Shown here: piece by piece, positions 1 to 52,782 of the stretch
How positions within the stretch are numbered: the first letter of the stretch is position 1
Layout: every line of letters begins with the position of its first letter
Notes under the pieces: model-generated
What the model saw: the letters and a program-made list of their open reading frames with translations, nothing else
The model's database searches: none
What the model was told of the DNA's origin: nothing
From: Escherichia phage vB_EcoM_swi3
Length of the DNA stretch: 52,782 bases
Strand: one strand, 5' to 3'
Sequence record: MT768059.1
Made by a program: the position numbers and the translations under genes

Positions 1-121
1 ACTTAGAGGTGTCTATATGTATGATCCGGTTTATCTCTTTATTAATATCAGAACCGGATGAAAAAAATTTACGCTGGCGAAAAAAATAAAAAAGCCGGAT
101 TGATAAATAAATCTGTAGACG

Positions 122-204: not shown

Positions 205-636
205 ATGGTTAATATAAGACAGAAAGGACAGAACTTTGAGCGTAAAATGGCTAAGAAGTTCAATAGCTCGTTCGGATTAACTGTTGAGCGCAATCTTCAA
301 CAGTCTATTAATGGCGGGGATGACTTGCTGGGTGTACCGTTTTTCAGTGTTGAACTGAAGAAGCACAATACCAAGTCTATCGGAACATGGTGGAGACAGT
401 GTGCGGCATCGGCAAAGGCTCAGAACAAGATGCCGGTACTGATATACGAACTACCAAGAAAACAGCCTACCGTGGTGATGAATAAGGCTGATGTGATTGA
501 CTGTTTTCCAAGTGGCACGACTTTTAACGAGGCATCGAACCGCCTCTTTGTGGGTTTAGTAGAATTAACATGGGAACAATTTTGCCGGGTCTACAACTAT
601 TACGTTGCGCCCGGCACTCAATATCACGTCAATTAA
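205..636 (+). CDS. PD-(D/E)XK-fold nuclease, possibly Hjc/RecU-like Holliday junction resolvase
   Basis: 143 aa; N-terminal GQNFERK, then GGDDLL ... SVELKK matching D...(E)xK spacing of PD-(D/E)XK nucleases. Confidence 0.45.
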   Translation: MVNIRQKGQNFERKMAKKFNSSFGLTVERNLQQSINGGDDLLGVPFFSVELKKHNTKSIGTWWRQCAASAKAQNKMPVLIYELPRKQPTVVMNKADVIDCFPSGTTFNEASNRLFVGLVELTWEQFCRVYNYYVAPGTQYHVN

Positions 637-3753: not shown

Positions 3754-3953
3754 AATAGTTACCTTTGTACTAGTTTCCAGGTGTGACTACTGTTACCAAT
3801 AGTCACTAGTTGAAACTACTACTTGTGTTACTATCAACAAGAAACATGTTACCAAATTGTTAAAGAGCAAAAGGTACCATTGACATCTACCAGATGTACC
3901 TGTTGACTGGTTAAGTACTACCTACCTAATCTAAACCATACCAATATCCTTTA

Positions 3954-3970
3954 GACCAGTTAGACTGGTC
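3954..3970. promoter_or_regulatory. perfect palindrome GACCAGT-TAG-ACTGGTC (putative operator)
   Basis: 7-bp arms with 3-bp spacer read directly; half-site GACTGGT recurs at 3905..3911. Confidence 0.4.
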
Positions 3971-4138
3971 AATCAGTCATCACATTCAATAAATATATAA
4001 TAGACCAATCGCTATTGATTGTACATAAAAGAATTGCAAGTTTATGCAAGTTTTTAGAAATGATAATCACTTGCGATTGATAGTGGTTCTCATATACAAT
4101 TGATATAGTTTCACATGTAATTATTCAACTCAAAATGG

Positions 4139-4370
4139 TCGGCAGGGGTTATAATAACATAGGGGTGCCACTTAAAGGAGCCGGCGAAATTATTTCTAAA
4201 AATATAATTTCAATCTGAATTATAGACGCTTTGTACTATAACGGCCGAAGTAGTTCACACGGTAATTGTACCAATCATAATAGTTACCAGAGTAATCATT
4301 TCAATTGAAATAGGTGCGGCGGGGGGTAATTTCGCAGGGGTGCTACCTGCCAGGAGCCAGCGGAATTTTT
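4139..4370. repeat. two copies of a ~57-bp GC-rich element, period ~176 bp
   Basis: 4139..4196 and 4315..4370 share GyCGGCrGGGG ... AGGGGTGCyAC ... AGGAGCCrGCGrAATT; flanked by AT-rich DNA. Confidence 0.5.
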
Positions 4371-4588
4371 TTATTTTTTGGTATTTTCTCCTTATCAGGA
4401 CCAATCATCATCAGAGTGATACGACAGGAGCTAACCTTTTGCCTAACACAATAATAAGTGAAGCCCCTCTAAAATTTTTTTATATTTTTCGGAAATTGTG
4501 TAGACACTCACTAAAAAGTGGTGTACTTTCTCTCCTCCACGCGCTATCATTAATGTGAATCATCAAACGGCCTCACGGTCTCCTACTT

Positions 4589-10923: not shown

Positions 10924-11637
10924 ATGGCACTTAAAACAGTTGTAACTGACCTTAACGAAGTTGATGAAGGCTTCCGTGGCCTGTATATCAAAGACGACGC
11001 GTCCGGTGCGTTTCGTTTGGATGTTGAACCAGACGAAAAAACGCTGAAAGAATTAGAAGACCTGCGCAAAGAAAAACAGCGTATGGAGCAGCACACCAAA
11101 AAACTTCTCGAAGAGAAGAAAAAAGAAGCTGAACGTGCTCGCCTCGCTGAAGAAGAACGCGCACGTCGTGAGCGTGATGTTGAATCTCTTGAGCGTTCAA
11201 TCAAAGAGAAGCATCAGGCTGAACTTGAACAGTATACCAGTCGTCAGGCACAGCTGCAAGCACAGCTGGAAGCGCAGATGGTTGATAACATCGCGTTGAA
11301 CCTGGCTAACCAACTCTCTGACACCCCGGCATTAATTATGCCACACATCAAGGCCCGACTGCGCGCTCAGGAAATTGATGGTAAGTGGCGTACTATCGTC
11401 GTGGATGTTATGGGTAACCCGACTGCTACAACGCCAGATGAGCTAGTGGAGCATATGCGCGCTGATAAGCAGTTTGCACCTCTTGTGCGTGGAACCAAGG
11501 CTGGCGGTGGCGGTGCCAACGGCGGCGGAGCTAATCCTGGTGGGAACGGCGGTGGCGAACAGCACACTTTCGGGGGCGGGGATGACCGCATAGCACGTGC
11601 TCGTGCTAAAATCCAAAACACACAATGGGGCAAATAA
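10924..11637 (+). CDS. putative scaffolding protein
   Basis: 237 aa, highly charged coiled-coil (EEKKKEAERARLAEEERARRERD), Gly-rich C-terminus; between portal and capsid. Confidence 0.5.
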   Translation: MALKTVVTDLNEVDEGFRGLYIKDDASGAFRLDVEPDEKTLKELEDLRKEKQRMEQHTKKLLEEKKKEAERARLAEEERARRERDVESLERSIKEKHQAELEQYTSRQAQLQAQLEAQMVDNIALNLANQLSDTPALIMPHIKARLRAQEIDGKWRTIVVDVMGNPTATTPDELVEHMRADKQFAPLVRGTKAGGGGANGGGANPGGNGGGEQHTFGGGDDRIARARAKIQNTQWGK

Positions 11638-11640
11638 GTT

Positions 11641-12618
11641 ATGTCACTGTATATTTTTAACGAACAAGTACGTTCTACCGCCACCGAACTGGTCGACCAG
11701 GACGTACAGAAGTTCAACGAAGCTTCTGCAGGTACCCTTATCCTGGGTAACCAGTACGTAATTGGTGATTACGTTGAGCAGGCAATGTGGCAGCTGGTTG
11801 ACGGCATCGCTACCCGCCGTAATGCTTACGCTGGCACCAACAAAGTTGATGCGCAGACTCTGGGCCAGATTCTGGACCGCTCTGTTAAAATCGACGGCCG
11901 TGTTGGTCCTCTGAACATTACCGGTACTATGATGCGTCGCATCGGTGCAGGTGACACTGAACCAGCAGCTGTTGTTGCTGCACAGGCTTCTGCTGCAATG
12001 TTCCAGGATTACCTGAATACCACTGCTGCATGTCTGGTAGCTGCTATCGGCGCAAACGCTGATGTTGTTCTGGACGTAACTTCAGGCTCCGGTGCTGCTG
12101 CAAACATCACCATGCAGAACCTGAACAAAGTCAACGCGAAGATGGGTGACCGTTCTCAGCAGATTCGTGCGTACATCATGCACTCTACTGCGTTCCACTC
12201 CCTCATCGATCAGGCTATCAACAACACGGAACACCTGTTCCAGATTGGTGACCTGAACGTGTACAAAGACTTCCTGGGTCGTCGTTATGTCGTTTCTGAC
12301 ATCCCGGCTCTGGTTGATGGCGCCGGTGCTTCCGCTAAGTACCGCACTCTGGGTCTGACCCCGTCTGCTGCAATCGTTCAGGTCGGCGGCCTGTACGACA
12401 TGGTTACCTCCGAGCAAACCGGTGGTGAAAACATCCTGCGTCAGATGCAGGGTGAATACGACTTCAACGTGTCGCTGAAAGGCTACAGCTGGGTCGGTCA
12501 CAAAGCTGGTCAGTCTCCGACTGATGAAGACCTGGCTGCTCAGGCTTCCTGGTCTAAAGTTGCGACTTCCAACAAAGACACCGCTGGTGTTATGTTGCTG
12601 GCTAAGTCTGCAATCTAA
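11641..12618 (+). CDS. major capsid protein
   Basis: 325 aa after scaffold; followed by terminator. Confidence 0.6.
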   Translation: MSLYIFNEQVRSTATELVDQDVQKFNEASAGTLILGNQYVIGDYVEQAMWQLVDGIATRRNAYAGTNKVDAQTLGQILDRSVKIDGRVGPLNITGTMMRRIGAGDTEPAAVVAAQASAAMFQDYLNTTAACLVAAIGANADVVLDVTSGSGAAANITMQNLNKVNAKMGDRSQQIRAYIMHSTAFHSLIDQAINNTEHLFQIGDLNVYKDFLGRRYVVSDIPALVDGAGASAKYRTLGLTPSAAIVQVGGLYDMVTSEQTGGENILRQMQGEYDFNVSLKGYSWVGHKAGQSPTDEDLAAQASWSKVATSNKDTAGVMLLAKSAI

Positions 12619-12640
12619 CCCACAAACGGGACTAACAAAA

Positions 12641-12666
12641 GGCGAGCTGACGAGCTCGCCTTTTTT
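12641..12666 (+). terminator. rho-independent terminator
   Basis: GGCGAGCT-gacg-AGCTCGCC stem then TTTTTT. Confidence 0.7.
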
Positions 12667-12667
12667 A

Positions 12668-12696
12668 TTTACACGTATAAAGTTCTGGTATATAAT
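12668..12696 (+). promoter_or_regulatory. sigma70-like promoter TTTACA-N17-TATAAT
   Basis: Read directly after the capsid terminator. Confidence 0.55.
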
Positions 12697-12722
12697 CGGA
12701 CTAAACTTGCTGGAGGCTTTCT

Positions 12723-13223
12723 ATGGCATACACACTTGTTGTGGAAGACGGTTCAATTGTTCCGGGTGCTAACTCGTATGTTAGCGCAGCAGAAGTTGAT
12801 GAATTTATCACTAACGAAGGTATTCTCATTCAACCAGGAACTGACCCGTACTACCAGGCTGCCAAAGCAGCTATCCGACTTGATAACCAGTTTAACTGGC
12901 TAGGTCGTAAGGTCAGCAAAACACAGAGTATGGCTTGGCCCCGTACTGGTCTCGGTGCATGCAATGTTGACATCGCGGAGTCTGTAATTCCGCGAGAAGT
13001 TAAGCTGGCACAGCTTTATATGATGGCCAGTGTATTGAGCTACGACGGTGAAGAAGGTGTGCGTAGCGACCAGGCTTTGCGCCGTAAGAAAGTTGGTAAC
13101 CTGGAGATTGAATACTTCGACTCCAAATCAGGCGTTACCGGTGCAACTGACCTTTGGACGTCAGACGTCAAGGCCATGCTCAAGCACCTTGTGGGTGCAT
13201 CCCTGAGAACGCGGAGAGTATAA
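12723..13223 (+). CDS. putative head-tail connector/head completion protein
   Basis: 166 aa; position after capsid gene. Confidence 0.4.
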   Translation: MAYTLVVEDGSIVPGANSYVSAAEVDEFITNEGILIQPGTDPYYQAAKAAIRLDNQFNWLGRKVSKTQSMAWPRTGLGACNVDIAESVIPREVKLAQLYMMASVLSYDGEEGVRSDQALRRKKVGNLEIEYFDSKSGVTGATDLWTSDVKAMLKHLVGASLRTRRV

Positions 13224-13711
13224 TGATTCGTATACGCCTTGAACGTCGCGACAAACAAAAGTTCGAGTTCACCTACCGTGCCTTTAAGTCGTTTGAGGGT
13301 CAAGGCGTATCAGTAGGTGTTCATCCAGAACACAACAGACGTGTAAATCCCAGGGACCGTATAACAAACGCCGAGCTAGCAATGGTGCATGAGTACGGTC
13401 TTAACGGTCTGCCAGAACGAAGCTTTCTTCGTAGTGCTGTTGGTGGCAGGGGTAAAGGCCGACAGGCAATAAACAAAGCTTTCCGCGATAATGTGCCTGC
13501 TGTTCTCAGAGGAAGCATGACTGCGCATGAGCTCAACGACAAAATAGGTCGTATGCTTGTTGACGCTGTTCACGACAGAATGGACAGTGACGTACCACCT
13601 CCTAACACCGAGCTGACAGAAGAACGCAAACGCGGGCCAGGTACACTTAGAGAATCTATGCAGTTGTATGATTCGATAGGGTACAAAGTTGGCAGAAACT
13701 GGAGGCTATAA
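13223..13711 (+). CDS. putative head completion/neck protein
   Basis: ATG at 13223 overlapping upstream stop (TAATG); ORF-track start 13154 rejected. Confidence 0.4.
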   Translation: MIRIRLERRDKQKFEFTYRAFKSFEGQGVSVGVHPEHNRRVNPRDRITNAELAMVHEYGLNGLPERSFLRSAVGGRGKGRQAINKAFRDNVPAVLRGSMTAHELNDKIGRMLVDAVHDRMDSDVPPPNTELTEERKRGPGTLRESMQLYDSIGYKVGRNWRL

Positions 13712-34548: not shown

Positions 34549-36516
34549 TTAGTGTGCCTCTGCCCAGTTACTTTCTATCTTAGCATCAGTAAGAACAGGT
34601 ACACGAAGCGGTAGTACAGTTTCCATGACCCGTACGAAATCATAGAATCCATCTTCTGCTTGCTTACCAGTTGGTAGAGAGAAGTTAAGCTCATCGTGTA
34701 CCGTCAGGCGAGGTACGCCAATCACGTCAAAGTAACCGTCTTCATACCCTTTCAGCATTGCAGACTTCATCTGGTCTGCTGACGACCCTTGCAGCACTCG
34801 GTTGATTGCTTTGTGGGTGTCTGCCAGTTTAATGTTTGGACCATACTCCTGACGTGCTTCTTCAAATGGTAAAGGCGTCTTCCCGAATCCACCACGTTTT
34901 GGTACCCATTTGTTGAACCACGTCTTCCGGCCCATAAATGTTTCTACATACCCCTGGCTATAACATAAATCTTCATAATGCTTCATGGTAGCACCAATGA
35001 ATGGTGCACCCTGATGGTACGCCTTCAGAACAGGTTCTGCTTCTTCAGGCGTCATTGCTAACTTACGGGCAAGAGCATTAAGCATCATGCCGTACAACAA
35101 ACCAAAGTTGATGGTCTTAGCCGGTTTACGCTCTATAACGTGACCTGAGGCTTCCTTGATAATATCGACCATAACATTGTGGTAATCTGCTTCCGGGTTA
35201 GCCGCGAAAATTGCTCGTAACTCATCAGCGCCCGGGCCGACTGCAAAATGCGCCATGAATCGATATTCAATTTGGGCGTAGTCTGCTGATCCCCATCTGT
35301 GTCCGACATCCGGTACGAAACAAGCACGAAGGAGTGGTCCCAGTATTTTGTGTCGAGACGGTATATTCTGCAGATTAGGGTCAGATGAGCTAAACCTACC
35401 ACTAACGGTTCCGCCGTCATCACCGCGCATTTGATGGAATTGACCGTGAAGGAAGCCATTTGTATTCATCCCCAATATATAGCCACGAATAAACGTGGAC
35501 TGGATTTTCTCATAAGACTTAATTTCAGACACCAGTTCCGCAAACGGATGGTGCAAGCCTGCTAAGAAGTCTGCCGTAAACGATGGATTGCCCGCCGCTG
35601 TTCTGAAGTACTCCAGACCTAAATGGTCAAATGCAAGAGCTAAGTCCGGACCTGAGTTAACGTTAATGTTAAAACCAATCTGGTCTTTAATCTGCTGGTG
35701 CATTTTCCTTATTTCAGCGCTAAGCGTATCATCCGCCTCTTTGGCTTTGTCAAGGTCAACACGCACACCTGCAAAACGCATCTTAAGCATTAATGGAATA
35801 AGCTTGCACTCCATATAGAATACGTCTGTTAAACACCAGCGACTTAACAATGGCCACTGGGCTTTGATAATGTGTATTGGTAAGTCGGCGTCAGATTCAG
35901 CATAGTAACCCACAAGACGAGGAGGCGTTTTGTAGATGTACTTTCTGGCTTCACCTGTTGGCTTACAGCCATAAGCATCTGAAATCCATTGGTACATCTC
36001 GGCTGAGTCTTTACCTTCGCCTACATACTTTCGTCCAAGTCCTTCAAGTGCAACACGCGCGCCTGGGTCGAGTAATGCTTCCGCGAATTGTACATCCATG
36101 CACAATCCTTTAACTTCCACGCCTTCTGCTGCAAGCCAGCCCAAGTCATATGTGATGTTAGCACCGACTTTAACTTGGTTAGGTCGCGAGAGTTCGAGCC
36201 GAAGCCAACCAAGTACTTCCTCAGCTGGAAGGTTATCCTCTTCGCCGAGCTCGTGTCTGATTGGGTAGTAAGCTTTGAAGCCGTTGTCCGTAGCGATACT
36301 AACTCCAACGATATGACCCTCCCTCCTGGCCCAACCACTACCATTTGTATCCATCCCTGGGTCGTATGTTTCACAGTCAAGACCGATAATCTTTGCAGAA
36401 GACAAGTCCGGGTAATGCGCGCGCGGCCGCCATCCAGTATCCCTGACGTATGGTATAGGACGGTTGATAGGTTTAACATTCTTTGCACCTTCGAAGCTAT
36501 CGAATAAAAAGCTCAT
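34549..36516 (-). CDS. DNA polymerase, family A, with 3'-5' exonuclease domain
   Basis: 655 aa; exo motif GLDCETYDP; Pol A motif A DYAQIEYR, motif B RKPAKTINFGLLYGM, motif C VHDEL. Confidence 0.9.
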   Translation of the reverse strand: MSFLFDSFEGAKNVKPINRPIPYVRDTGWRPRAHYPDLSSAKIIGLDCETYDPGMDTNGSGWARREGHIVGVSIATDNGFKAYYPIRHELGEEDNLPAEEVLGWLRLELSRPNQVKVGANITYDLGWLAAEGVEVKGLCMDVQFAEALLDPGARVALEGLGRKYVGEGKDSAEMYQWISDAYGCKPTGEARKYIYKTPPRLVGYYAESDADLPIHIIKAQWPLLSRWCLTDVFYMECKLIPLMLKMRFAGVRVDLDKAKEADDTLSAEIRKMHQQIKDQIGFNINVNSGPDLALAFDHLGLEYFRTAAGNPSFTADFLAGLHHPFAELVSEIKSYEKIQSTFIRGYILGMNTNGFLHGQFHQMRGDDGGTVSGRFSSSDPNLQNIPSRHKILGPLLRACFVPDVGHRWGSADYAQIEYRFMAHFAVGPGADELRAIFAANPEADYHNVMVDIIKEASGHVIERKPAKTINFGLLYGMMLNALARKLAMTPEEAEPVLKAYHQGAPFIGATMKHYEDLCYSQGYVETFMGRKTWFNKWVPKRGGFGKTPLPFEEARQEYGPNIKLADTHKAINRVLQGSSADQMKSAMLKGYEDGYFDVIGVPRLTVHDELNFSLPTGKQAEDGFYDFVRVMETVLPLRVPVLTDAKIESNWAEAH

Positions 36517-37511
36517 CAGTCCCCTCTAACATACGCAATTACAACTGTACGAGTTGAGTTTTCCATTTTGAGCGCCTGACTACCCAGTCCTATTCTTTCC
36601 ATGCCTTTAGCCAGTTTACTCATCTGACTAATAACACAGTTGAACGGTTTACTAAACTTAGTCGACTGGAACTTAATGTCGACGGACATCTTTGGAATAA
36701 TCTTATCTGGTAAGTCTGCCTTTGCAGTTGACTCGCCTGTTATCTCCAGAATAGCCTGACCTTCGTCGTACCCAGTAAGCTGGTCCATGACTTCCAGGAA
36801 CTCAGGAGTGATGGCCTGCATATCCATTTCCATATTGAAGAACTTCGATACGTCTGGCCATTTGGCTGCTAGTACCGGAGCATCCATCTGTACACCATCC
36901 GCAAAGCCGAAGAACATCTGGCCGCGGGCGTATCCTACACTTGTGGGTTCCATCTTCAGCTTAACCAGAGCCTCAAGCATTGGTTTGGCTATGGCACATT
37001 CAAATTCAAAATCTACGTTCAACTTCTCGCGTATCATATACTTACCGTTAGTGGCGTAAGCATAACCATCGCGCAGAAGTAAAGATGTCGCCCATACCTG
37101 CGGTGCTTCGTTAGGTACCCACTTGGCTAAGGCAGTTAATACCGGGAGTAATTCGCCATGCGCTGAATACCAGTTGTTAACTGTAGCAAGTGGCGGTATT
37201 GGTTCATTAAGCGCTTGCATTCTTGTTTTAAGTACACCTGCTGTGACTGTGAGGTTTCCAGCGGCTGTAATGTTAAAAGTAATCTGTTCAGTTCTTGCCG
37301 CATTAACGGCCTTACGAAATGATTCAGCATCCACTTGCAGGTCTGGAAATCCTTTACATGGCGCTCGTAGTAATACGTTCTTGTAGTATGAATGGATTGT
37401 TCCGTCTGCAATCCATATTTTGCCCATAAGACCACTATCAGTATACTTGATGGGACGAGCTTGTTGAACGGCAGTCTGTATTTGTTTGGTGTCATAGTTA
37501 AACTTGCTCAT
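36516..37511 (-). CDS. hypothetical protein (replication/modification accessory candidate)
   Basis: 331-aa ORF between polymerase and TS homolog; no motif recognised. Confidence 0.5.
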   Translation of the reverse strand: MSKFNYDTKQIQTAVQQARPIKYTDSGLMGKIWIADGTIHSYYKNVLLRAPCKGFPDLQVDAESFRKAVNAARTEQITFNITAAGNLTVTAGVLKTRMQALNEPIPPLATVNNWYSAHGELLPVLTALAKWVPNEAPQVWATSLLLRDGYAYATNGKYMIREKLNVDFEFECAIAKPMLEALVKLKMEPTSVGYARGQMFFGFADGVQMDAPVLAAKWPDVSKFFNMEMDMQAITPEFLEVMDQLTGYDEGQAILEITGESTAKADLPDKIIPKMSVDIKFQSTKFSKPFNCVISQMSKLAKGMERIGLGSQALKMENSTRTVVIAYVRGD

Positions 37512-40079: not shown

Positions 40080-40547
40080 TTATTCAGCAACTTCTTCGTT
40101 GTCGCCTTCGATCGCGCCAGCCAGTTTAGCAGCTTCAGCTTTAGCAGCTTCTGCTTTCTGGCGAGCTTTTTCAGCTTTCTCTTCAGCTTTGCGAATCTGC
40201 TCAGCAGCTTTCGCTTCGGCTTTTTCAGCTTTGATGCGAGCACGCTCTTCAGCTTTACGCTGTTTTTCAGCGGCTTTAGCAGCATCGCGTTCTGCTTTAG
40301 CGGTATCAACACGCTTAGCCAGAACCTTACCAGTGGCTTTACGCCAGTAGGTCAGCTGGGAAGAAACAGTACCACGGGACATTTCGGTAGTGGCAACAAC
40401 TTCGTCCATAACGTCAGAGCTGGACTTGCCTTCTTCATGGGCTTTATCAGCCAGGTCCCATACATAACGTGCACCAGTACCAGCTGCCGGATACAGTACG
40501 CCGTTAACTTCTTCTTTACCAGTTACAAAAGTCAGTTTCTCGCTCAT
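40080..40547 (-). CDS. protein with Ala/Lys/Glu-rich repetitive C-terminal tail (histone H1-like low complexity)
   Basis: ATG at 40547 after GAGGAA; C-terminal ~70 aa of AKAEK/AEKA-type repeats with acidic end. Confidence 0.5.
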   Translation of the reverse strand: MSEKLTFVTGKEEVNGVLYPAAGTGARYVWDLADKAHEEGKSSSDVMDEVVATTEMSRGTVSSQLTYWRKATGKVLAKRVDTAKAERDAAKAAEKQRKAEERARIKAEKAEAKAAEQIRKAEEKAEKARQKAEAAKAEAAKLAGAIEGDNEEVAE

Positions 40548-40653
40548 AATTTTTTCCTCGTCTACAGGGCTTAATGTTTGTTCGTTACGTGAGTTAATAT
40601 ACGTCATTTAAAAGAGTGTGTAAACACCTTTTTTAAACTTTTTTCATTAGTGT

Positions 40654-40875
40654 CTAGAAAGGCACATCATAGTCAAAAAGTTTACATCCGGAAGACAGGA
40701 CTGCCGGCGGTGGTGTTTTGCCTCCGGATAACAGGCAACCTCCTGCCTGAAAACTACGGCAGTTCGCACAGCTCATATCCTGCAAGTATATAATAAGCTG
40801 TCGGCGAACATGCCGGGGTAAAGCTTTAGCCTGGGTTGCTACCCGTTCAAATAGTTCTCTGTCATCGAGCGCCAT
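40654..40875 (-). CDS. hypothetical small Cys-containing protein
   Basis: 73-aa ORF with CANC...GGC...GC. Confidence 0.35.
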   Translation of the reverse strand: MALDDRELFERVATQAKALPRHVRRQLIIYLQDMSCANCRSFQAGGCLLSGGKTPPPAVLSSGCKLFDYDVPF

Positions 40876-42532
40876 AACCGTTTCCCCAGTCGTAGTTCAT
40901 GATTTGTGGGTAGGGTCGTTTAATCCATACCTTGATGCGCTTAGGAATAGCCAGCTCACCCTTACGGCGAATAAACTCATCGCATGTTTCAGGCGGTTCT
41001 GTTCCTGCAGCATTACGCCACCAGGCATCTGCCATTTGCTTAGCATTGCCATGGGCCTCTATATTTACCCAGGTTGTATACACTTCCAGGTTTGAGTAAT
41101 ACACAACCTTTATACTGTCAGGTCGTCCCTGCTTCTGGAATAAAGAATAGTTTACCAGCGTAACATCTTTATCCACAACACGAAGCTGACCGTTAGTCAT
41201 TACCTCTTCTTCTGATGAAGTGAAGGCAATGGCAGGTCCGTTAACTGTAAACTCAAATTCATGTCCGCACATCGGATATACACCATTCTCGTCTGGCGTA
41301 CTTCCTTTAGCCGGATGCTTACATGTACGGGCTGCATAGCCACTTACCTGGTGACAGATAGGGCACTCTTTACCGCCAGGTGTTTTCTCTGACCGTTTCT
41401 TTTTCTTCTTACCAAGACGAGGTGGAACAGCCGGGTCGTCAATAGGCCCAAGGTCAATGGTGTTAGATGTAAAGTCCATAACAAGACAGTCATGCTTGCC
41501 AGGCGCTGTACGTAATCCTCGACCAAGTATCTGCACCCACAAAGCAACAGACGTGGACGGGCGCAAGATGCCGAGCATATCAATCTCAGGATAGTCAAAT
41601 CCTGTAGTCAATACGTTTACGTTTACACAGACCCGTGCTCGTCCGCTTGTAAACTCTTCCAGTGCGGCTTCACGTTCTTTCTTTGTAAGACCGCCATGCA
41701 CAACTACAGTCTGCCACCCTCGCAGATTAAATTCGTCTGCTATGTTGTGGGCGTGCTCAACACTTGTGGCAAATACAAGAACGTGGTTCCTGTCTTTACC
41801 GTAGTGCATCATCTCACGAATAGCCGCGACTGTTATACTATGCTGGTTGGCTACCTTCTCAAGCTCTGACGGGATGTAGTCACCCATCCTTTCGCCAACA
41901 TTACTGGTGTCAATCTTGGTTAACACTTTCTTGTTGACCAGGCGCGACAGGAAGCCTTCATTTACCAGTCGGGTGAATGCGTCAGGTGTTGTAAGGTCAT
42001 AGCAGATGTCGGTAAATATACCACAGTCCAGCAAGTGACCACCTGCCAGGCGATACGGAGTTGCTGTGAGTCCTGTTACCTTTACCTTAGGATTAAGCTC
42101 TTTGAAGTGAGCAATAACCTTACGGTATGTTGTTTCAGACTTCTCAGGAACAAGATGGGCTTCGTCAATGAATATAAGATTGAACTTACCTGCTTCTTCC
42201 AGGTTCTTAATAATTGACTGTACAGATGCTACAACGATACGGCCTGAAAAGTCTTTATGTCCTGCACCTGAAGAGTATATTGATACTGGTGCTTGTGGCC
42301 AGTGACGAACAATCGCTTTGGCGTCTTGTTCAACCAGCTCCTTGACATGTGTCAATATAAGAATGCGCTGACGGGGATAGCTGGTAAGAATATCCTTCAT
42401 CAGCATACCAAGCACAGGTGATTTACCTGAACCTGTCGGCATGACAATAAGTGGATTACCACTATAAGAATTGAAGTACGACCACCAGGCTGTGACCGCT
42501 TCTTGTTGATACCAGCGAGCTTCAAAAGCCAT
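40862..42532 (-). CDS. superfamily 2 DNA helicase (DEAH box)
   Basis: 556 aa; Walker A PTGSGKS, DEAH (FIDEAHLV), C-terminal Cys pairs (CPICHQ ... CKHP). Confidence 0.8.
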   Translation of the reverse strand: MAFEARWYQQEAVTAWWSYFNSYSGNPLIVMPTGSGKSPVLGMLMKDILTSYPRQRILILTHVKELVEQDAKAIVRHWPQAPVSIYSSGAGHKDFSGRIVVASVQSIIKNLEEAGKFNLIFIDEAHLVPEKSETTYRKVIAHFKELNPKVKVTGLTATPYRLAGGHLLDCGIFTDICYDLTTPDAFTRLVNEGFLSRLVNKKVLTKIDTSNVGERMGDYIPSELEKVANQHSITVAAIREMMHYGKDRNHVLVFATSVEHAHNIADEFNLRGWQTVVVHGGLTKKEREAALEEFTSGRARVCVNVNVLTTGFDYPEIDMLGILRPSTSVALWVQILGRGLRTAPGKHDCLVMDFTSNTIDLGPIDDPAVPPRLGKKKKKRSEKTPGGKECPICHQVSGYAARTCKHPAKGSTPDENGVYPMCGHEFEFTVNGPAIAFTSSEEEVMTNGQLRVVDKDVTLVNYSLFQKQGRPDSIKVVYYSNLEVYTTWVNIEAHGNAKQMADAWWRNAAGTEPPETCDEFIRRKGELAIPKRIKVWIKRPYPQIMNYDWGNGYGAR

Positions 42533-49070: not shown

Positions 49071-49508
49071 CTATTTATATAAGTCCATCCAGTTACGATA
49101 CTCGTCATAAAACCGGTCAAACTCGTTTTTGGTGAGTGCAATAGCAACACCATTTACCAGATGCATGGTTCGTGTTTTGATGTTGACATACATGACGTTG
49201 CTGTACGGGAACAGACTACCGTCATTGTCAGTAAAGTAAGTCGGTGTGATATGAAGCGCATCACGCAATGCAACCAGTGATTCAACAGCTTCAGCGTGCC
49301 ATTCACGTCTGAAGGTCATGCAAGGCGGTGCACCGTCTTCGTCCTGGGTACCGCGCAAAGTAAGATATACAATTTCGGCAGTATCATTGTGTACAATTAC
49401 GCTAATGTCAACGATGTCGCTGGTACGGAAGGTAACAAAGTGCTCTTCAATTACTTGTTCGTCGGTATTAGGGCTGACGCCCTGAAAGGTCTTGAGTGTG
49501 TGAAACAT
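49071..49508 (-). CDS. hypothetical protein
   Basis: Start at ATG 49508 after AGGAG. Confidence 0.4.
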   Translation of the reverse strand: MFHTLKTFQGVSPNTDEQVIEEHFVTFRTSDIVDISVIVHNDTAEIVYLTLRGTQDEDGAPPCMTFRREWHAEAVESLVALRDALHITPTYFTDNDGSLFPYSNVMYVNIKTRTMHLVNGVAIALTKNEFDRFYDEYRNWMDLYK

Positions 49509-49661
49509 TGGTTGTATCTCCTTAACAGAATGTAAGTCTATTATGTATATAAAGGAGGGGAAAGTAAATAGATATAAATGTATAAAATACATAAAAGTCT
49601 ATTTACTCTGGTTTAATAACGTGTATATAATGAGAGCCCCACAAACAAGAGGAGAGACTCA

Positions 49662-49994
49662 ATGATAAAGCCAAAACTGTTGCGGCATATTCGCAACGGT
49701 ATTAAGCTACTCGCCGAAGGCAATGAATATGCCTGCAAGCAACGCGGTATTACAAAAGTCGGCCTGTTCAATAAAGAGTTACCGACTCGCTACTTTACCA
49801 AATCACCATTAACACTCGTACCTGCAGCGGAGTATTATAAAGACCCCGAAGCAGCTCGGGCTAAAATCAAGGAAGGTCTTGACCGACTTGTAGAGGAAGG
49901 CTATTTGACAGTACGTCAACACACTGAATCATCTTATTACTACAAGCCAACTTCTAAGGTAACCAGCAATGACAATGACGAGTCAGCCGAGTGA
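49662..49994 (+). CDS. hypothetical protein
   Basis: 110-aa ORF upstream of primase gene. Confidence 0.45.
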   Translation: MIKPKLLRHIRNGIKLLAEGNEYACKQRGITKVGLFNKELPTRYFTKSPLTLVPAAEYYKDPEAARAKIKEGLDRLVEEGYLTVRQHTESSYYYKPTSKVTSNDNDESAE

Positions 49995-52503
49995 TATTCT
50001 TGGTCTGAAATACTTTAAGCCAGAAGGGATTCCCCAAGTCTTCAAAGATATGAAGCGCTGGGCTATTTTTGAGCTGACGTACGAAGACGAGACCCTCGAA
50101 GTTCAGTCCAAACCTAAGAAACCTGCAAGAGCGCCATCAGGCCGTTCCTTCAGCACAACTGTGCCTGAAGAGTGGATGACTTTCGACGACGCCCTGACAC
50201 GTTGTATTCGCAATCGTGAAATGAAGATTAAAGCTGTACAGGGTAATATCACCTTTGTGCCGGCTTTGATTGTTCCTCGCCAGTGGTACTTTGTTGACCT
50301 GGACAACCATGATGATAATCCAGACATTGAAGCAACCCACAAAGCGATAATTGAGGGGACCCGTGGTGCTTATGCTGAGACGTCAATCTCTGGCAAAGGG
50401 CAACACATTGCAATCCCTTTACCCTGGACTGCAGCAACATCTAAAGAGAAAGACGAACAGCTGGACATCAAAATCCAGAAGGCTGAGATGTTCCTGGTAA
50501 TGACAGGCAATGTATTGAGCGAGTTCAATGCTAATCCTGTTTCAGCCCGTGAATGGCATGCAGCAATTGAGAAGTTCTTTCTTGAAGCAAGCGCACCTGA
50601 TATTGATGTTGAGTTTGAGCAAGACGAAGACCGTGGCGAAGAGTATGACAAAGAGCTGTACGAACAGTTAGCCGACAATACTCGCTGGGCTTTAGAGCAC
50701 TATCTGAATGAGCATGCACCAGACGGTGTTGGTGTAAGTAATGACGGTTCTGAACGTTTGAGCCGCATACTCAAAGACTTGCTTCGTGTAACCCGTAACT
50801 ACGAAGTTACACAACGCATCTTCATGGCCAGCAAAGCTGCAGCATATGAAGGTCGCAGACCAAGTCGACACAACCTGTCTGTTGATAAGTACCATCAGTG
50901 GTTCAGTCGTGTCGGTAAGACTGTGCTGAAAGAAATGCAACGTGACGGCTTATTCGTTAAGACCAAGTTTGCTCTTGACATCAACAAAGAGTTAGCCAAG
51001 AATTCAGGTGTCTCCCTGGCTGAGAATGTTGAGTTCAAGGTCAACGATGACATTCTGCCTTCTGATGTATTCGTCAGAACGGCCCCGTCTGGGTTTAAAC
51101 GGCTTATTGCTGAGATACAGGATAACATATCTCCGGCTAACAGGGTTAACGACTATGCCATCGGCACAGCTCTTAACATCCTGAGCAACTGCGCTGGTCG
51201 CAAGTATGTTTGTCCAGTAGGCGGTCATGCTAACTTCCTGGTAACCAACATCATTCTTGTGGGTGGTTCGTCAATCGGTAAATCGCTGTATACCGAGTTG
51301 TTCCCACAAATCCAGGCAAGTGTGCCAGACACATCGCCTATCAGTCTTAACCGTATCCCAAGGGAACAGACTTTTGCAACCAGGACGTTTGCTGAACTGA
51401 TGTCCAACCCGTCATACCATTCAGTCCAGTTGTTCTACCCTGAATTTGGTCTGGCTTTAGGTTCTGGCTTACGCATGAATCCTAACAACCCGGACAACTT
51501 TCAGAAAGCTCTGATGGACGCTTCAACCAAGCGTAAGGTTGGTGGTATACTGACAGGTATCAAACGTGCTAATGCTGACAATGATGTCAAGACAGTAAGC
51601 GAACCATGCTACTCTATCCTGGGCGACTCAACTCAAGAGCTTATCCTTGACAACACCCGGAAGCAAGACTTCTCAAGTGGCTTTTTGCCCCGCTTCCTGT
51701 TCATCCCTAACTATGAACGAGCGGAGTTTGCCAAACCTGAGAAGGTAGGACGTCGCCAGCAGATTCGCCGTACTCAATTCTCCAAAGAGTTGATTGAGAA
51801 GCTGGAAGCAATCGCTTATGTGAATGCTATCCCGCCTAACGGTAAACTAAGGCACGACCCGATTCCTATTTACGACGAATCGGACGATGATGACTTCCTG
51901 TACGAGTACCAGTGCAATATTAATGACATGCGCAAGTATTACAGGGATAACGAAGTAGCATCTGCCTTTGTGGGCCGAATGGGTGAGTATGTATTCAATA
52001 TAGCAGCACTGATTGGATTACTCGACAACTGGGATACTCCTGTAATGACCAGGGACAACATCGAATGGGCTTACAAATATGTGCTTCGTTGTATAACCGC
52101 TTGGGTCAATAACACAAGCAGGATAGTCGCACCACCAACTACCAACGCCGAAGTAGTGGACGGCTTCCTAAAAGTCTACAGGGACATTTTGGCCCTTTAC
52201 GCCAAAAGCGGATGGAACGGTATTGTTAAGCATTATCCTGAGGGTGTTGTGAGAAGTATCCGGGAAGAACACCTCCAGATGAATGGTTTAAGCATATATG
52301 CTATTCGTCAGTCTTTGAGCTGGTTTAAATCGAATTACGGTTTTAATATCACAGCTAACAACAAAGTCATTGACGGTATGCTGCAGGATATGATTGACCA
52401 GGACTATTTAGCAGTTCAAATATATAAGCCCACAAGAGGCCGATCTGCTAACATTTACTGCCTGACAGAGCGAGGATATGACACTGCTAAGAAGTTAAAA
52501 TAA
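49969..52503 (+). CDS. primase-polymerase (AEP-type) fused to P-loop NTPase/helicase domain
   Basis: 844 aa; N-terminal YFVDLDNHDD and SISGKGQHIAIPL (prim-pol DxD and sGxGxH-like); C-terminal Walker A VGGSSIGKS. Confidence 0.65.
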   Translation: MTMTSQPSDILGLKYFKPEGIPQVFKDMKRWAIFELTYEDETLEVQSKPKKPARAPSGRSFSTTVPEEWMTFDDALTRCIRNREMKIKAVQGNITFVPALIVPRQWYFVDLDNHDDNPDIEATHKAIIEGTRGAYAETSISGKGQHIAIPLPWTAATSKEKDEQLDIKIQKAEMFLVMTGNVLSEFNANPVSAREWHAAIEKFFLEASAPDIDVEFEQDEDRGEEYDKELYEQLADNTRWALEHYLNEHAPDGVGVSNDGSERLSRILKDLLRVTRNYEVTQRIFMASKAAAYEGRRPSRHNLSVDKYHQWFSRVGKTVLKEMQRDGLFVKTKFALDINKELAKNSGVSLAENVEFKVNDDILPSDVFVRTAPSGFKRLIAEIQDNISPANRVNDYAIGTALNILSNCAGRKYVCPVGGHANFLVTNIILVGGSSIGKSLYTELFPQIQASVPDTSPISLNRIPREQTFATRTFAELMSNPSYHSVQLFYPEFGLALGSGLRMNPNNPDNFQKALMDASTKRKVGGILTGIKRANADNDVKTVSEPCYSILGDSTQELILDNTRKQDFSSGFLPRFLFIPNYERAEFAKPEKVGRRQQIRRTQFSKELIEKLEAIAYVNAIPPNGKLRHDPIPIYDESDDDDFLYEYQCNINDMRKYYRDNEVASAFVGRMGEYVFNIAALIGLLDNWDTPVMTRDNIEWAYKYVLRCITAWVNNTSRIVAPPTTNAEVVDGFLKVYRDILALYAKSGWNGIVKHYPEGVVRSIREEHLQMNGLSIYAIRQSLSWFKSNYGFNITANNKVIDGMLQDMIDQDYLAVQIYKPTRGRSANIYCLTERGYDTAKKLK

Positions 52504-52514
52504 GTAGGTAAATC

Positions 52515-52556
52515 AAGGGCTTGGGTAATTGTAAAAATCCTAAGCCCTTATTTTTT
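52515..52556 (+). terminator. rho-independent terminator
   Basis: AAGGGCTT ... AAGCCCTT stem then TTTTTT. Confidence 0.55.
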
Positions 52557-52724
52557 AAGCTTATTTTACAAACTGATTAATATTTAAACTATAATTAAAT
52601 ATATGGACCCTAAGAGTATGATTTTATTACTCTTTTACAAATCATAATATATGGGCTCCCTATAAAAAGATTAAGGGGGTAATAAGGGGATCCAAGTACC
52701 GGATAAAAGGGGTATATATTTATT

Positions 52725-52745
52725 TTATTATTATTATTATTATTA
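52725..52745. repeat. (TTA)7 microsatellite in AT-rich terminal region
   Basis: Seven tandem TTA units read directly. Confidence 0.7.
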
Positions 52746-52782
52746 TATATTATTAATTATATTAGAAGTAATAAAAACAGCT

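Follow-up and report, generated by a model that had tools for sequence, protein, structure and literature searches.

The genome of Escherichia phage vB_EcoM_swi3 (sequence record MT768059.1; 52,782 nucleotides, and this whole stretch is what we call the window) is the complete genome of a BP63-like myophage (Rosemountvirus). It carries a rightward gene for an 844-residue protein, which a first-pass annotation made from the sequence had described as a primase-polymerase fused to a helicase-type NTPase. The locus raises the question of what kind of replication enzyme is encoded here, whether all parts of it can be expected to work and where on the genome it might act. On the grounds of profile comparisons and a predicted structure, we consider it very likely that the protein is the single-chain replicative primase-helicase of the phage, built from an archaeo-eukaryotic primase (AEP) domain, a helix-bundle domain (HBD), a linker, a DUF3987 AAA+ ATPase and a winged helix. 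The gene itself is an already annotated, known DNA primase/helicase, and the combination of AEP, DUF3987 helicase and winged helix-turn-helix (wHTH) is a described class. The protein is ordinary apart from a change at one of the three classical catalytic residues, and this clade-wide exchange of glutamate for lysine at motif III is, beside a candidate replication origin next to the gene, the sole non-trivial novelty.

Domain architecture of the primase-helicase

The open reading frame (ORF) runs rightward from an ATG at 49969 to 52503 in the ORF listing and encodes 844 amino acids, exactly as previously given, and a Shine-Dalgarno-like AAGG element is located 9 nt 5' of the start codon. The protein matches PHROG 3022 ('DNA primase') end to end (aa 15-833, E=3.7e-186). 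The three motif strings quoted in the first-pass annotation are all present, YFVDLDNHDD at aa 107-116, SISGKGQHIAIPL at aa 139-151 and VGGSSIGKS at aa 431-439, and they are not chance matches: across the wider family, an alignment of 72 members shows no exception at D110, D112, S139, H146 and K438. The description of the first string as Asp-rich holds for D110 and D112, which are conserved, but not for the trailing HDD, which is not. The gene and the parts of its product are arranged as follows.

49969-52503, plus strand: primase-helicase gene (PHROG 3022; annotations of orthologues)
50011-50538, plus strand: AEP catalytic domain, aa 15-190
50296-50304, plus strand: AEP motif I, D110-L-D112, metal ligands (72/72 members; aligns with D78/D80 of NrS-1)
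50383-50406, plus strand: SxS loop and AEP motif II, S139-I-S-G-K-G-Q-H146, nucleotide binding (from the alignment)
50461-50478, plus strand: motif III strand L165-D-I-K168-I-Q170, with Lys168 in the Glu column of the family and Asp166 two residues upstream
50548-50943, plus strand: helix-bundle domain of the NrS-1 HBD type, aa 194-325, all-helical in the model
50944-51054, plus strand: flexible linker, aa 326-362 (predicted local distance difference test, pLDDT, 40-64; aa 345-359 below 50)
51055-51768, plus strand: helical 'head', aa 363-410, and AAA+ ATPase core, aa 411-600
51262-51285, plus strand: Walker A, G432-S439
51442-51444, plus strand: Walker B E492, in 'PEFG'
51679-51696, plus strand: arginine finger R575, in 'GFLPRF'
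51769-52353, plus strand: helical lid with R670 (nt 51976-51978) and long helical connector, aa 601-795 (helices 606-720 and 726-790 in the model)
52354-52500, plus strand: C-terminal winged-helix DNA-binding domain, approximately aa 796-844

With a close-family profile as query, an exhaustive HMMER search retrieved 971 representative clusters, mostly 730-870 aa long and co-linear. The family profile was built from 72 members, the Pfam scan of relatives was run on 56 members and the motif III column was counted in 150. With the protein itself as query, Pfam and NCBIfam gave no AEP match, and NCBIfam gave no match at all. The 72-member profile, on the other hand, matches the SaPI5 primase-helicase 7OLA with E=5e-64 and the N300 structures of NrS-1 with about 1e-54 over profile positions 7-275, and HHalign of the close-family profile with 7OLA yielded a probability of 87% (E=3.9e-6). 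Motifs I and II are in register in the latter alignment (VDLDNH/LDIDNA and ETSISGKGQH/EKSPSGTGLH), so that the Asp motif lies within an AEP fold and the earlier AEP prim-pol call for the N-terminus is upheld.

AEPs are defined by the motifs hhhDhD/E, sxH and hD/E, the first and third of which provide metal ligands (PMC4538821). The N-terminal domain has the AEP catalytic fold, and its motif I reads Y-F-V-D110-L-D112 and aligns also with DID of 7OLA. Motif II is represented by G144-Q145-H146, where H146 (72/72) is aligned with H115 of NrS-1. The SxS dNTP-binding loop, S139-I-S141, aligns with S108-P-S110 of NrS-1, in which S108 and S110 are needed for activity (PMC8718748); in the family, S139 is as invariant as H146 and S141 occurs in 71/72 members. 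A zinc-finger-type cluster of Cys and His was not found in the sequence of the AEP region.

Directly behind the AEP core lies an NrS-1-type HBD, through which the family profile aligns with NrS-1 N300 and 7OLA as far as profile position 275. PF22763 (NrS1-1_pol-like_HBD) is matched by 36/56 relatives, and a Pfam scan with the window sequence alone gave no match to it. Y308 aligns with Y261 of NrS-1, a residue of primase initiation, and is kept in the family down to 26% identity; an HBD is needed to start primers in NrS-1 and in pRN1. The linker that follows is the least conserved segment of the protein (11-24% identity within the clade).

The C-terminal half had rightly been recognized as a helicase-type P-loop NTPase. 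Besides a sensor-2-like arginine, it has the Walker A and B motifs and the arginine finger that characterize an oligomeric ATPase, and the residues concerned are almost without exception conserved (K438 72/72, E492 71/72, R575 72/72, R670 72/72). The match to DUF3987 (PF13148) reaches 23.2 bits (E=4.7e-5) and thus stays below the Pfam gathering score of 27; among the relatives, two that are 77% and 43% identical have a precomputed PF13148 assignment, and the model is matched at E<=1e-3 by 41/56 members of the family. The AAA+ core has an MCM-like fold, and we take the PEFG, GFLPRF and R670 motifs to resemble DEFD, SRFD and sensor-2 of MCM proteins. Pfam MCM was not matched at E<=1, nor did the family profile match an MCM chain in the PDB at E<=1. 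The canonical MCM N-terminal domain with oligonucleotide/oligosaccharide-binding (OB) fold and zinc finger is absent: AEP, HBD and a short helical head precede the ATPase, and the model has no beta-rich OB fold. The helicase half appears to work like an MCM-type motor without being a canonical MCM. No match of the family profile extends into the helicase part of 7OLA or of NrS-1, and hence an NrS-1-type AEP-HBD module is joined to a different motor in this family. The AlphaFold model of the whole protein is a confident one, with a pLDDT of 85.8.

The change at motif III

In the family, motif III consists of the Glu in an 'hEhY' strand and corresponds to E139 of NrS-1. Among the 150 members counted, column 168 holds E 131 times, D twice, K nine times and Q three times, and Lys or Gln are confined to the clade of the window, i.e., Rosemountvirus, Loughboroughvirus, SOI901-like phages, P0009 and P0010. 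The register between column 168 and E139 of NrS-1 is gap-free and anchored on the conserved T179-G180. The equivalence was established from the alignment and residue numbering and cross-checked with S108/S110/Y146/Y261; in the text of the NrS-1 papers searched, E139 is not named as the motif III residue.

Asp166, which forms an 'hD' (L165-D166) on the same predicted strand, is found in most members of the clade and is rare elsewhere. It is the most likely candidate for a substitute metal ligand in place of the lost Glu. A Fisher test for co-occurrence of D166 with loss of E168 (p=1.7e-10) was rejected as evidence because essentially a single clade, and thus one evolutionary event, is involved. 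Within the K168 clade, the AEP domain is the best-conserved domain, with 50% identity to P0007 versus 46% for the AAA+ core, and the residues of motif I, motif II and the SxS loop (D110, D112, S139, S141, G142, G144 and H146) are kept down to 26% identity. No second primase or primase-like domain was found elsewhere in the genome. These three observations argue that the AEP domain still works, although with Lys168 at motif III primase activity is likely rather than guaranteed.

In the whole BP63/S144/SOI901 clade, a lysine thus stands where about 89% of the family have the Glu that serves as third metal-binding carboxylate, and the conserved Tyr and Arg nearby have changed as well. It is possible, if doubtful, that the catalytic centre is a non-canonical one, in which the carboxylate has moved to Asp166 or Lys168 replaces one metal ion, and whose substrate or initiation properties may be altered. 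Alternatively, under this reading, the AEP domain may have been re-purposed for a non-catalytic role in origin firing that consists in binding nucleotides or DNA.

Comparison with known systems

The nearest counterparts are annotated orthologues. Salmonella phage BP63 gp76, 'DNA primase' (YP_009302995), is 98.8% identical, has the same length and occupies the same three-gene context. About 45 Rosemountvirus proteins labelled 'primase', 'DNA primase' or 'DNA primase/helicase' are 97-99% identical, and Loughboroughvirus-type orthologues ('DNA primase/helicase') are 85-89% identical. The BP63-type annotations were made by similarity and name no domain types; otherwise, there is no substantive difference. 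Many similar phage proteins are found in BFVD under the labels 'NrS-1 polymerase-like HBD domain-containing', 'bifunctional primase/polymerase' and 'DUF3987'.

The class to which the window protein belongs has been described: in passages of the surveys by Kazlauskas, Krupovic and Venclovas (2016, 2018), DUF3987 'SF6' phage helicases appear as MCM-related, AEP-fused proteins with a C-terminal wHTH that are predicted to be replicative, and DUF3987 is classed there as a divergent MCM-related group (superfamily 6, SF6), often fused to AEPs and with a C-terminal wHTH (Kazlauskas et al. 2016, PMC4889955). The searched passages of these surveys do not mention BP63-like phages.

The best sequence link to a solved AEP structure is PriRep5 of SaPI5 (7OLA/7OM0), which likewise combines a primase, a ring helicase and a C-terminal DNA-binding domain in a single chain and has been described as a self-loading initiator-helicase (PMC9371898). 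Its ATPase, however, is classed as superfamily 3 (SF3) and is not matched by the window family profile, and it stems from a Staphylococcus phage satellite, whereas the window is a lytic enterobacterial phage. Similar differences separate the window protein from NrS-1: its helicase is SF3-like according to the literature, and its head and tail domains are novel, in contrast to the DUF3987/MCM-like motor found here. NrS-1 has the motif III Glu (E139) together with Tyr141 and Arg145, where the window has K168, Q170 and M174, and the NrS-1 protein is the replicative polymerase of that phage, whereas the window phage has its own PolA. BcMCM from a Bacillus cereus prophage is, by description, an AEP fused N-terminally to an MCM-type AAA+ domain without the canonical MCM N-terminal domain, and it has been shown to act as helicase, primase and DNA polymerase and to prefer dNTPs (PMC4538821 among the sources). 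With 1028 aa it is larger, and BLAST had identified it as an MCM homologue, whereas the ATPase of the window protein lacks a Pfam MCM match and is assigned to DUF3987. Finally, AgaPP/AgaPH, a PriCT-DUF3987 pair from elements with prokaryotic Argonaute (pAgo) genes, share with the window protein a DUF3987 ATPase with Walker A and B, a small C-terminal domain and the partnership with an AEP, and the helicase activity of AgaPH is abolished by Walker mutations (PMC11724360). They are, however, two polypeptides instead of a single chain, and their AEP is BT4734-like with a Lys in motif II.

Proposed mechanism and alternative explanations

As a replicative primase-helicase, the protein would assemble through its AAA+ domains into a hexameric ring, in which R575 would complete the ATP site of the neighbouring subunit, and hydrolysis of ATP would drive this ring along single-stranded DNA and unwind the phage duplex. 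Six flexibly tethered AEP-HBD modules would make short primers on the exposed strand, possibly from dNTPs as with NrS-1 and BcMCM, which the family A polymerase of the phage, with its processivity factor, would then take over. Targeting of the protein to an origin is the probable task of the winged helix, so that the protein would act as a self-loading initiator-helicase in the manner of SaPI Rep proteins, and the best candidate for such an origin would be the conserved gap immediately downstream of the gene. In SaPI Rep the C-terminal domain is used for origin recognition, and NrS-1 needs its C-terminal domain for helicase activity (PMC9371898).

Several points weigh against this picture. A PDB sequence search with HMMER found no match for the protein nor for its narrow 8-sequence profile, HHalign of the close-family profile to NrS-1 gave a probability of only 35%, and homology to solved AEPs is thus deduced by way of intermediates and a predicted structure. 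That structure has a predicted template modelling score (pTM) of 0.60, so the arrangement of its domains relative to each other is unreliable. The polarity of unwinding cannot be assumed, since BcMCM unwinds 3'-5' (PMC4538821), while the DUF3987 protein AgaPH has been found to unwind DNA 5'-3' in an ATP-dependent manner (PMC11724360). The gap is proposed as origin by position and analogy, with repeat motifs that were chosen post hoc. The canonical acid of motif III, which provides a metal ligand in other AEPs as motif I does, is replaced by Lys168, the window has Gln and Met at positions 170 and 174, where the family conserves Tyr and Arg, and one member of the clade, P0009, has neither D166 nor E168. 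An acid that is E or D in 133/150 members and a metal ligand in AEPs (PMC4538821) having been lost together with two neighbouring conserved positions, the AEP domain might be a dead relic, and the protein an initiator and helicase only, with priming left to host DnaG or to recombination intermediates (Sak4-like, Cas4-like, SSB-like); a recombination module is indeed encoded (AAA_24/Sak4-like, PD-(D/E)XK, DUF669). We nevertheless regard such a relic as unlikely in view of an AEP domain that is conserved better than any other in the K168 clade, of motif I, motif II and SxS residues that persist to 26% identity, of the appearance of Asp166 on the motif III strand in sequences that have lost E168, and of Y308, which is kept and whose NrS-1 counterpart is needed solely for primer initiation.

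The protein could itself be the main DNA replicase, a true primase-polymerase like NrS-1 or pRN1 ORF904: its N-terminal module falls into the NrS-1 prim-pol/HBD family, and both NrS-1 and BcMCM act as DNA polymerases that use dNTPs preferentially. This seems improbable to us because a complete family A polymerase with 3'-5' exonuclease and an adjoining processivity factor makes bulk synthesis by the AEP unnecessary, and the change at motif III speaks against high processivity. Even less probable is that the C-terminal NTPase is an SF3 helicase (D5/E1/Rep-type) as in NrS-1 and SaPI5 PriRep5, an SF3/D5 relationship that the first-pass annotation had proposed to test and that is suggested by the N-terminal module shared with these two proteins, whose helicases are described as SF3-like. 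SF3 helicases are neither the closest structural nor the closest sequence neighbours of the ATPase; no SF3 protein is among the best 60 matches, Foldseek agrees, and the fold is MCM-like instead. We would give hardly any credence to the idea that the protein is no replication enzyme at all and instead serves in conflict, defence or repair as the AEP-helicase of such a system. One family member does match an AEP-TOTE conflict-system domain weakly (E=7e-4), and AEP/DUF3987 pairs adjoin pAgo genes on mobile elements (PMC11724360), but the gene of the window belongs to the syntenic core of a lytic phage genus, adjoins the replication module and encodes the sole primase and the sole ring-helicase candidate of the genome, and the pAgo-associated pair has itself been interpreted as the replication machinery of its element (PMC11724360).

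The rightward module and neighbouring replication genes

The primase-helicase gene is part of a rightward module, in which a 110-aa ORF, the primase-helicase gene, a non-coding gap and a gene for a PD-(D/E)XK nuclease follow each other. This three-gene module is kept in BP63, S144, KE26 and even SOI901, an Erwinia phage whose primase-helicase shares no more than 43% identity. Its remaining features and a gene of the leftward block that matters for the proposed mechanism are listed here.

49662-49994, plus strand: 110-aa ORF, first gene of the module (phrog_28429 'unknown function', full length, E=4e-76)
205-636, plus strand: PD-(D/E)XK nuclease, 143 aa, last gene of the module (PF24608 PDDEXK_15, E=5.4e-18; phrog_244, E=2.6e-23)
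49602-49631, plus strand: sigma-70-like promoter TTTACT-18-TATAAT (consensus scan, 10/12 match)
49568-49540, minus strand: mirror sigma-70-like site facing the leftward gene block (consensus scan)
36516-37511, minus strand: processivity-factor homologue, 331 aa (phrog_947 'DNA polymerase processivity factor', E=1.9e-47)

The 110-aa ORF overlaps the start of the primase-helicase gene by 26 nt, which makes translational coupling likely. It has no match in Pfam or NCBIfam, and no support was found for the label 'glutaredoxin' that it bears in some related records. Between its C-terminus and the winged helix at the end of the primase-helicase there is weak similarity (BLASTP E=0.017, single comparison); as a single comparison at this E value suggests paralogy only weakly, we do not claim it. 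The 143-aa nuclease is called 'RusA-like Holliday junction resolvase' in relatives, and its position is the same in BP63, S144, KE26 and SOI901.

The TTTACT-18-TATAAT site lies in the divergent intergenic region upstream of the 110-aa ORF and the primase-helicase gene. The ORF on the other side of this region (49071-49592, minus strand) has 173 aa as listed; its PHROG match covers aa 29-173, and the start used in relatives is equivalent to 49508, from which we conclude that its true start is probably at 49508. With this start, the divergent promoter region comprises 153 bp (49509-49661) with back-to-back sigma-70-like sites. The number of such sites in the region is not above the expectation from shuffled sequence, and the promoter is thus proposed by position only.

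The leftward block encodes PolA with a 3'-5' exonuclease domain, the processivity-factor homologue, a thymidylate synthase, an SF2 helicase, a Cas4-like nuclease, a dCMP deaminase, a DUF669 protein resembling single-stranded DNA-binding proteins (SSB-like) and a Sak4-like ATPase. The family A DNA polymerase noted previously is indeed present (34549-36516, minus strand; PF00476, E=4.7e-63). The 331-aa gene immediately downstream of it has no match to a Pfam family and is named 'DNA polymerase beta subunit' in relatives. Given PolA, the processivity factor, the DUF669 SSB-like protein, the Sak4-like ATPase, the Cas4-like nuclease and the SF2 helicase, we judge the earlier suggestion of a self-contained replisome to be reasonable.

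Genome ends and annotation of relatives

The last 12.8 kb of the window share 96-98% DNA identity with approximately 40 GenBank phages of Salmonella and E. coli. The location of the gene at the genome end, as previously described, is correct for this linear record but is otherwise an artefact of linearization: the orthologue in phage brunost is found at 11030-13564 of its record, and restriction analysis of S144 placed its physical genome ends in a different gap (PMC7432712). We therefore rejected a terminal position of the gene; it merely marks where the record was cut. In the window, a non-coding gap at about 3754-4588 separates a leftward cluster of small genes from rightward genes for nucleotide metabolism and structural proteins, and by analogy with S144 the physical genome ends, with short direct terminal repeats, are expected there.

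The record of phage IntR (OM313460.1) has the same length and gene coordinates as the window, at an identity of only 96.5%, and is collinear with it without indels. Over the 3.8 kb compared, 3.3% substitutions were counted, mostly at third codon positions. An artefact was considered and rejected, since collinearity, the absence of indels and the third-position changes speak for natural divergence. Some records of relatives carry questionable information. In the S1/S144/ZCSE2 lineage (records including MZ127825 for S1 and MT663719 for S144), the orthologue bears the wrong label 'anaerobic NTP reductase small subunit', and the orthologue in 'Listeria phage 220426122051' (PP583539 among the records noted) is 97% identical to those of enterobacterial phages, so that the host label looks doubtful.

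A candidate replication origin downstream of the gene

The gap 3' of the primase-helicase gene measures 483 bp in this genome (about 480-530 bp in the module), has a GC content of 27% and is conserved. On the circular map it continues across the end of the record, and it contains the following elements.

52515-52556, plus strand: terminator-like inverted repeat (I1), AAGGGCTT ... AAGCCCTT, then ATTTTTT (read from the sequence)
52557-52782, no strand assigned: left part of the candidate origin, with AATATATGG twice, AAGGGG three times, one CCGGAT box and a pure A/T tract of approximately 55 nt with (ATT)n
1-120, no strand assigned: right part of the candidate origin, joined to position 52782 on the circular map, with a conserved ACTTAGAGGTGTCTA element, CCGGAT three times and GCTGGCG
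about 121-150: promoter TTTACA-N17-TACAAT for the nuclease gene (BP63 annotates a promoter at 122-151)

The terminator-like repeat, which a simple terminator scan did not flag because its loop exceeds 8 nt, is kept in S144, KE26 and SOI901. The CCGGAT boxes of the right part lie at 24-29 (minus strand), 54-59 and 95-100, and GCTGGCG is GCCGGCG in relatives. Three of the nine AAGGGG sites of the genome and four of its 20 CCGGAT sites fall into the 483-bp gap, and the order of the elements is the same in S144, KE26 and SOI901, i.e., in four phages down to 43% protein identity. By analogy, this AT-rich, repeat-flanked gap is a reasonable candidate for the replication origin. Many records start there, and the gap was therefore also considered as a packaging terminus, an explanation that was rejected for S144 on the basis of published restriction mapping (PMC7432712). 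Elsewhere in the genome, three further CCGGAT sites occur within 243 bp at 40487-40729, just upstream of the SF2 helicase gene (40862-42532, minus strand); they may form a second cluster of binding sites or be due to chance.

Significance

For annotation, the gain is small, as dozens of near-identical phages already have it annotated as primase or primase/helicase. The analysis adds the exact assignment of domains, i.e., an NrS-1-type AEP with HBD, a DUF3987/MCM-like AAA+ ATPase and a winged helix, together with the correction of the SF3/D5 expectation and of wrong labels in some GenBank records. The natural Glu-to-Lys change at motif III in a strongly conserved primase domain could inform on how much rewiring an AEP active site tolerates, and the conserved gap provides a testable lead to the origin of replication in a widely used group of Salmonella and E. 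coli biocontrol phages.

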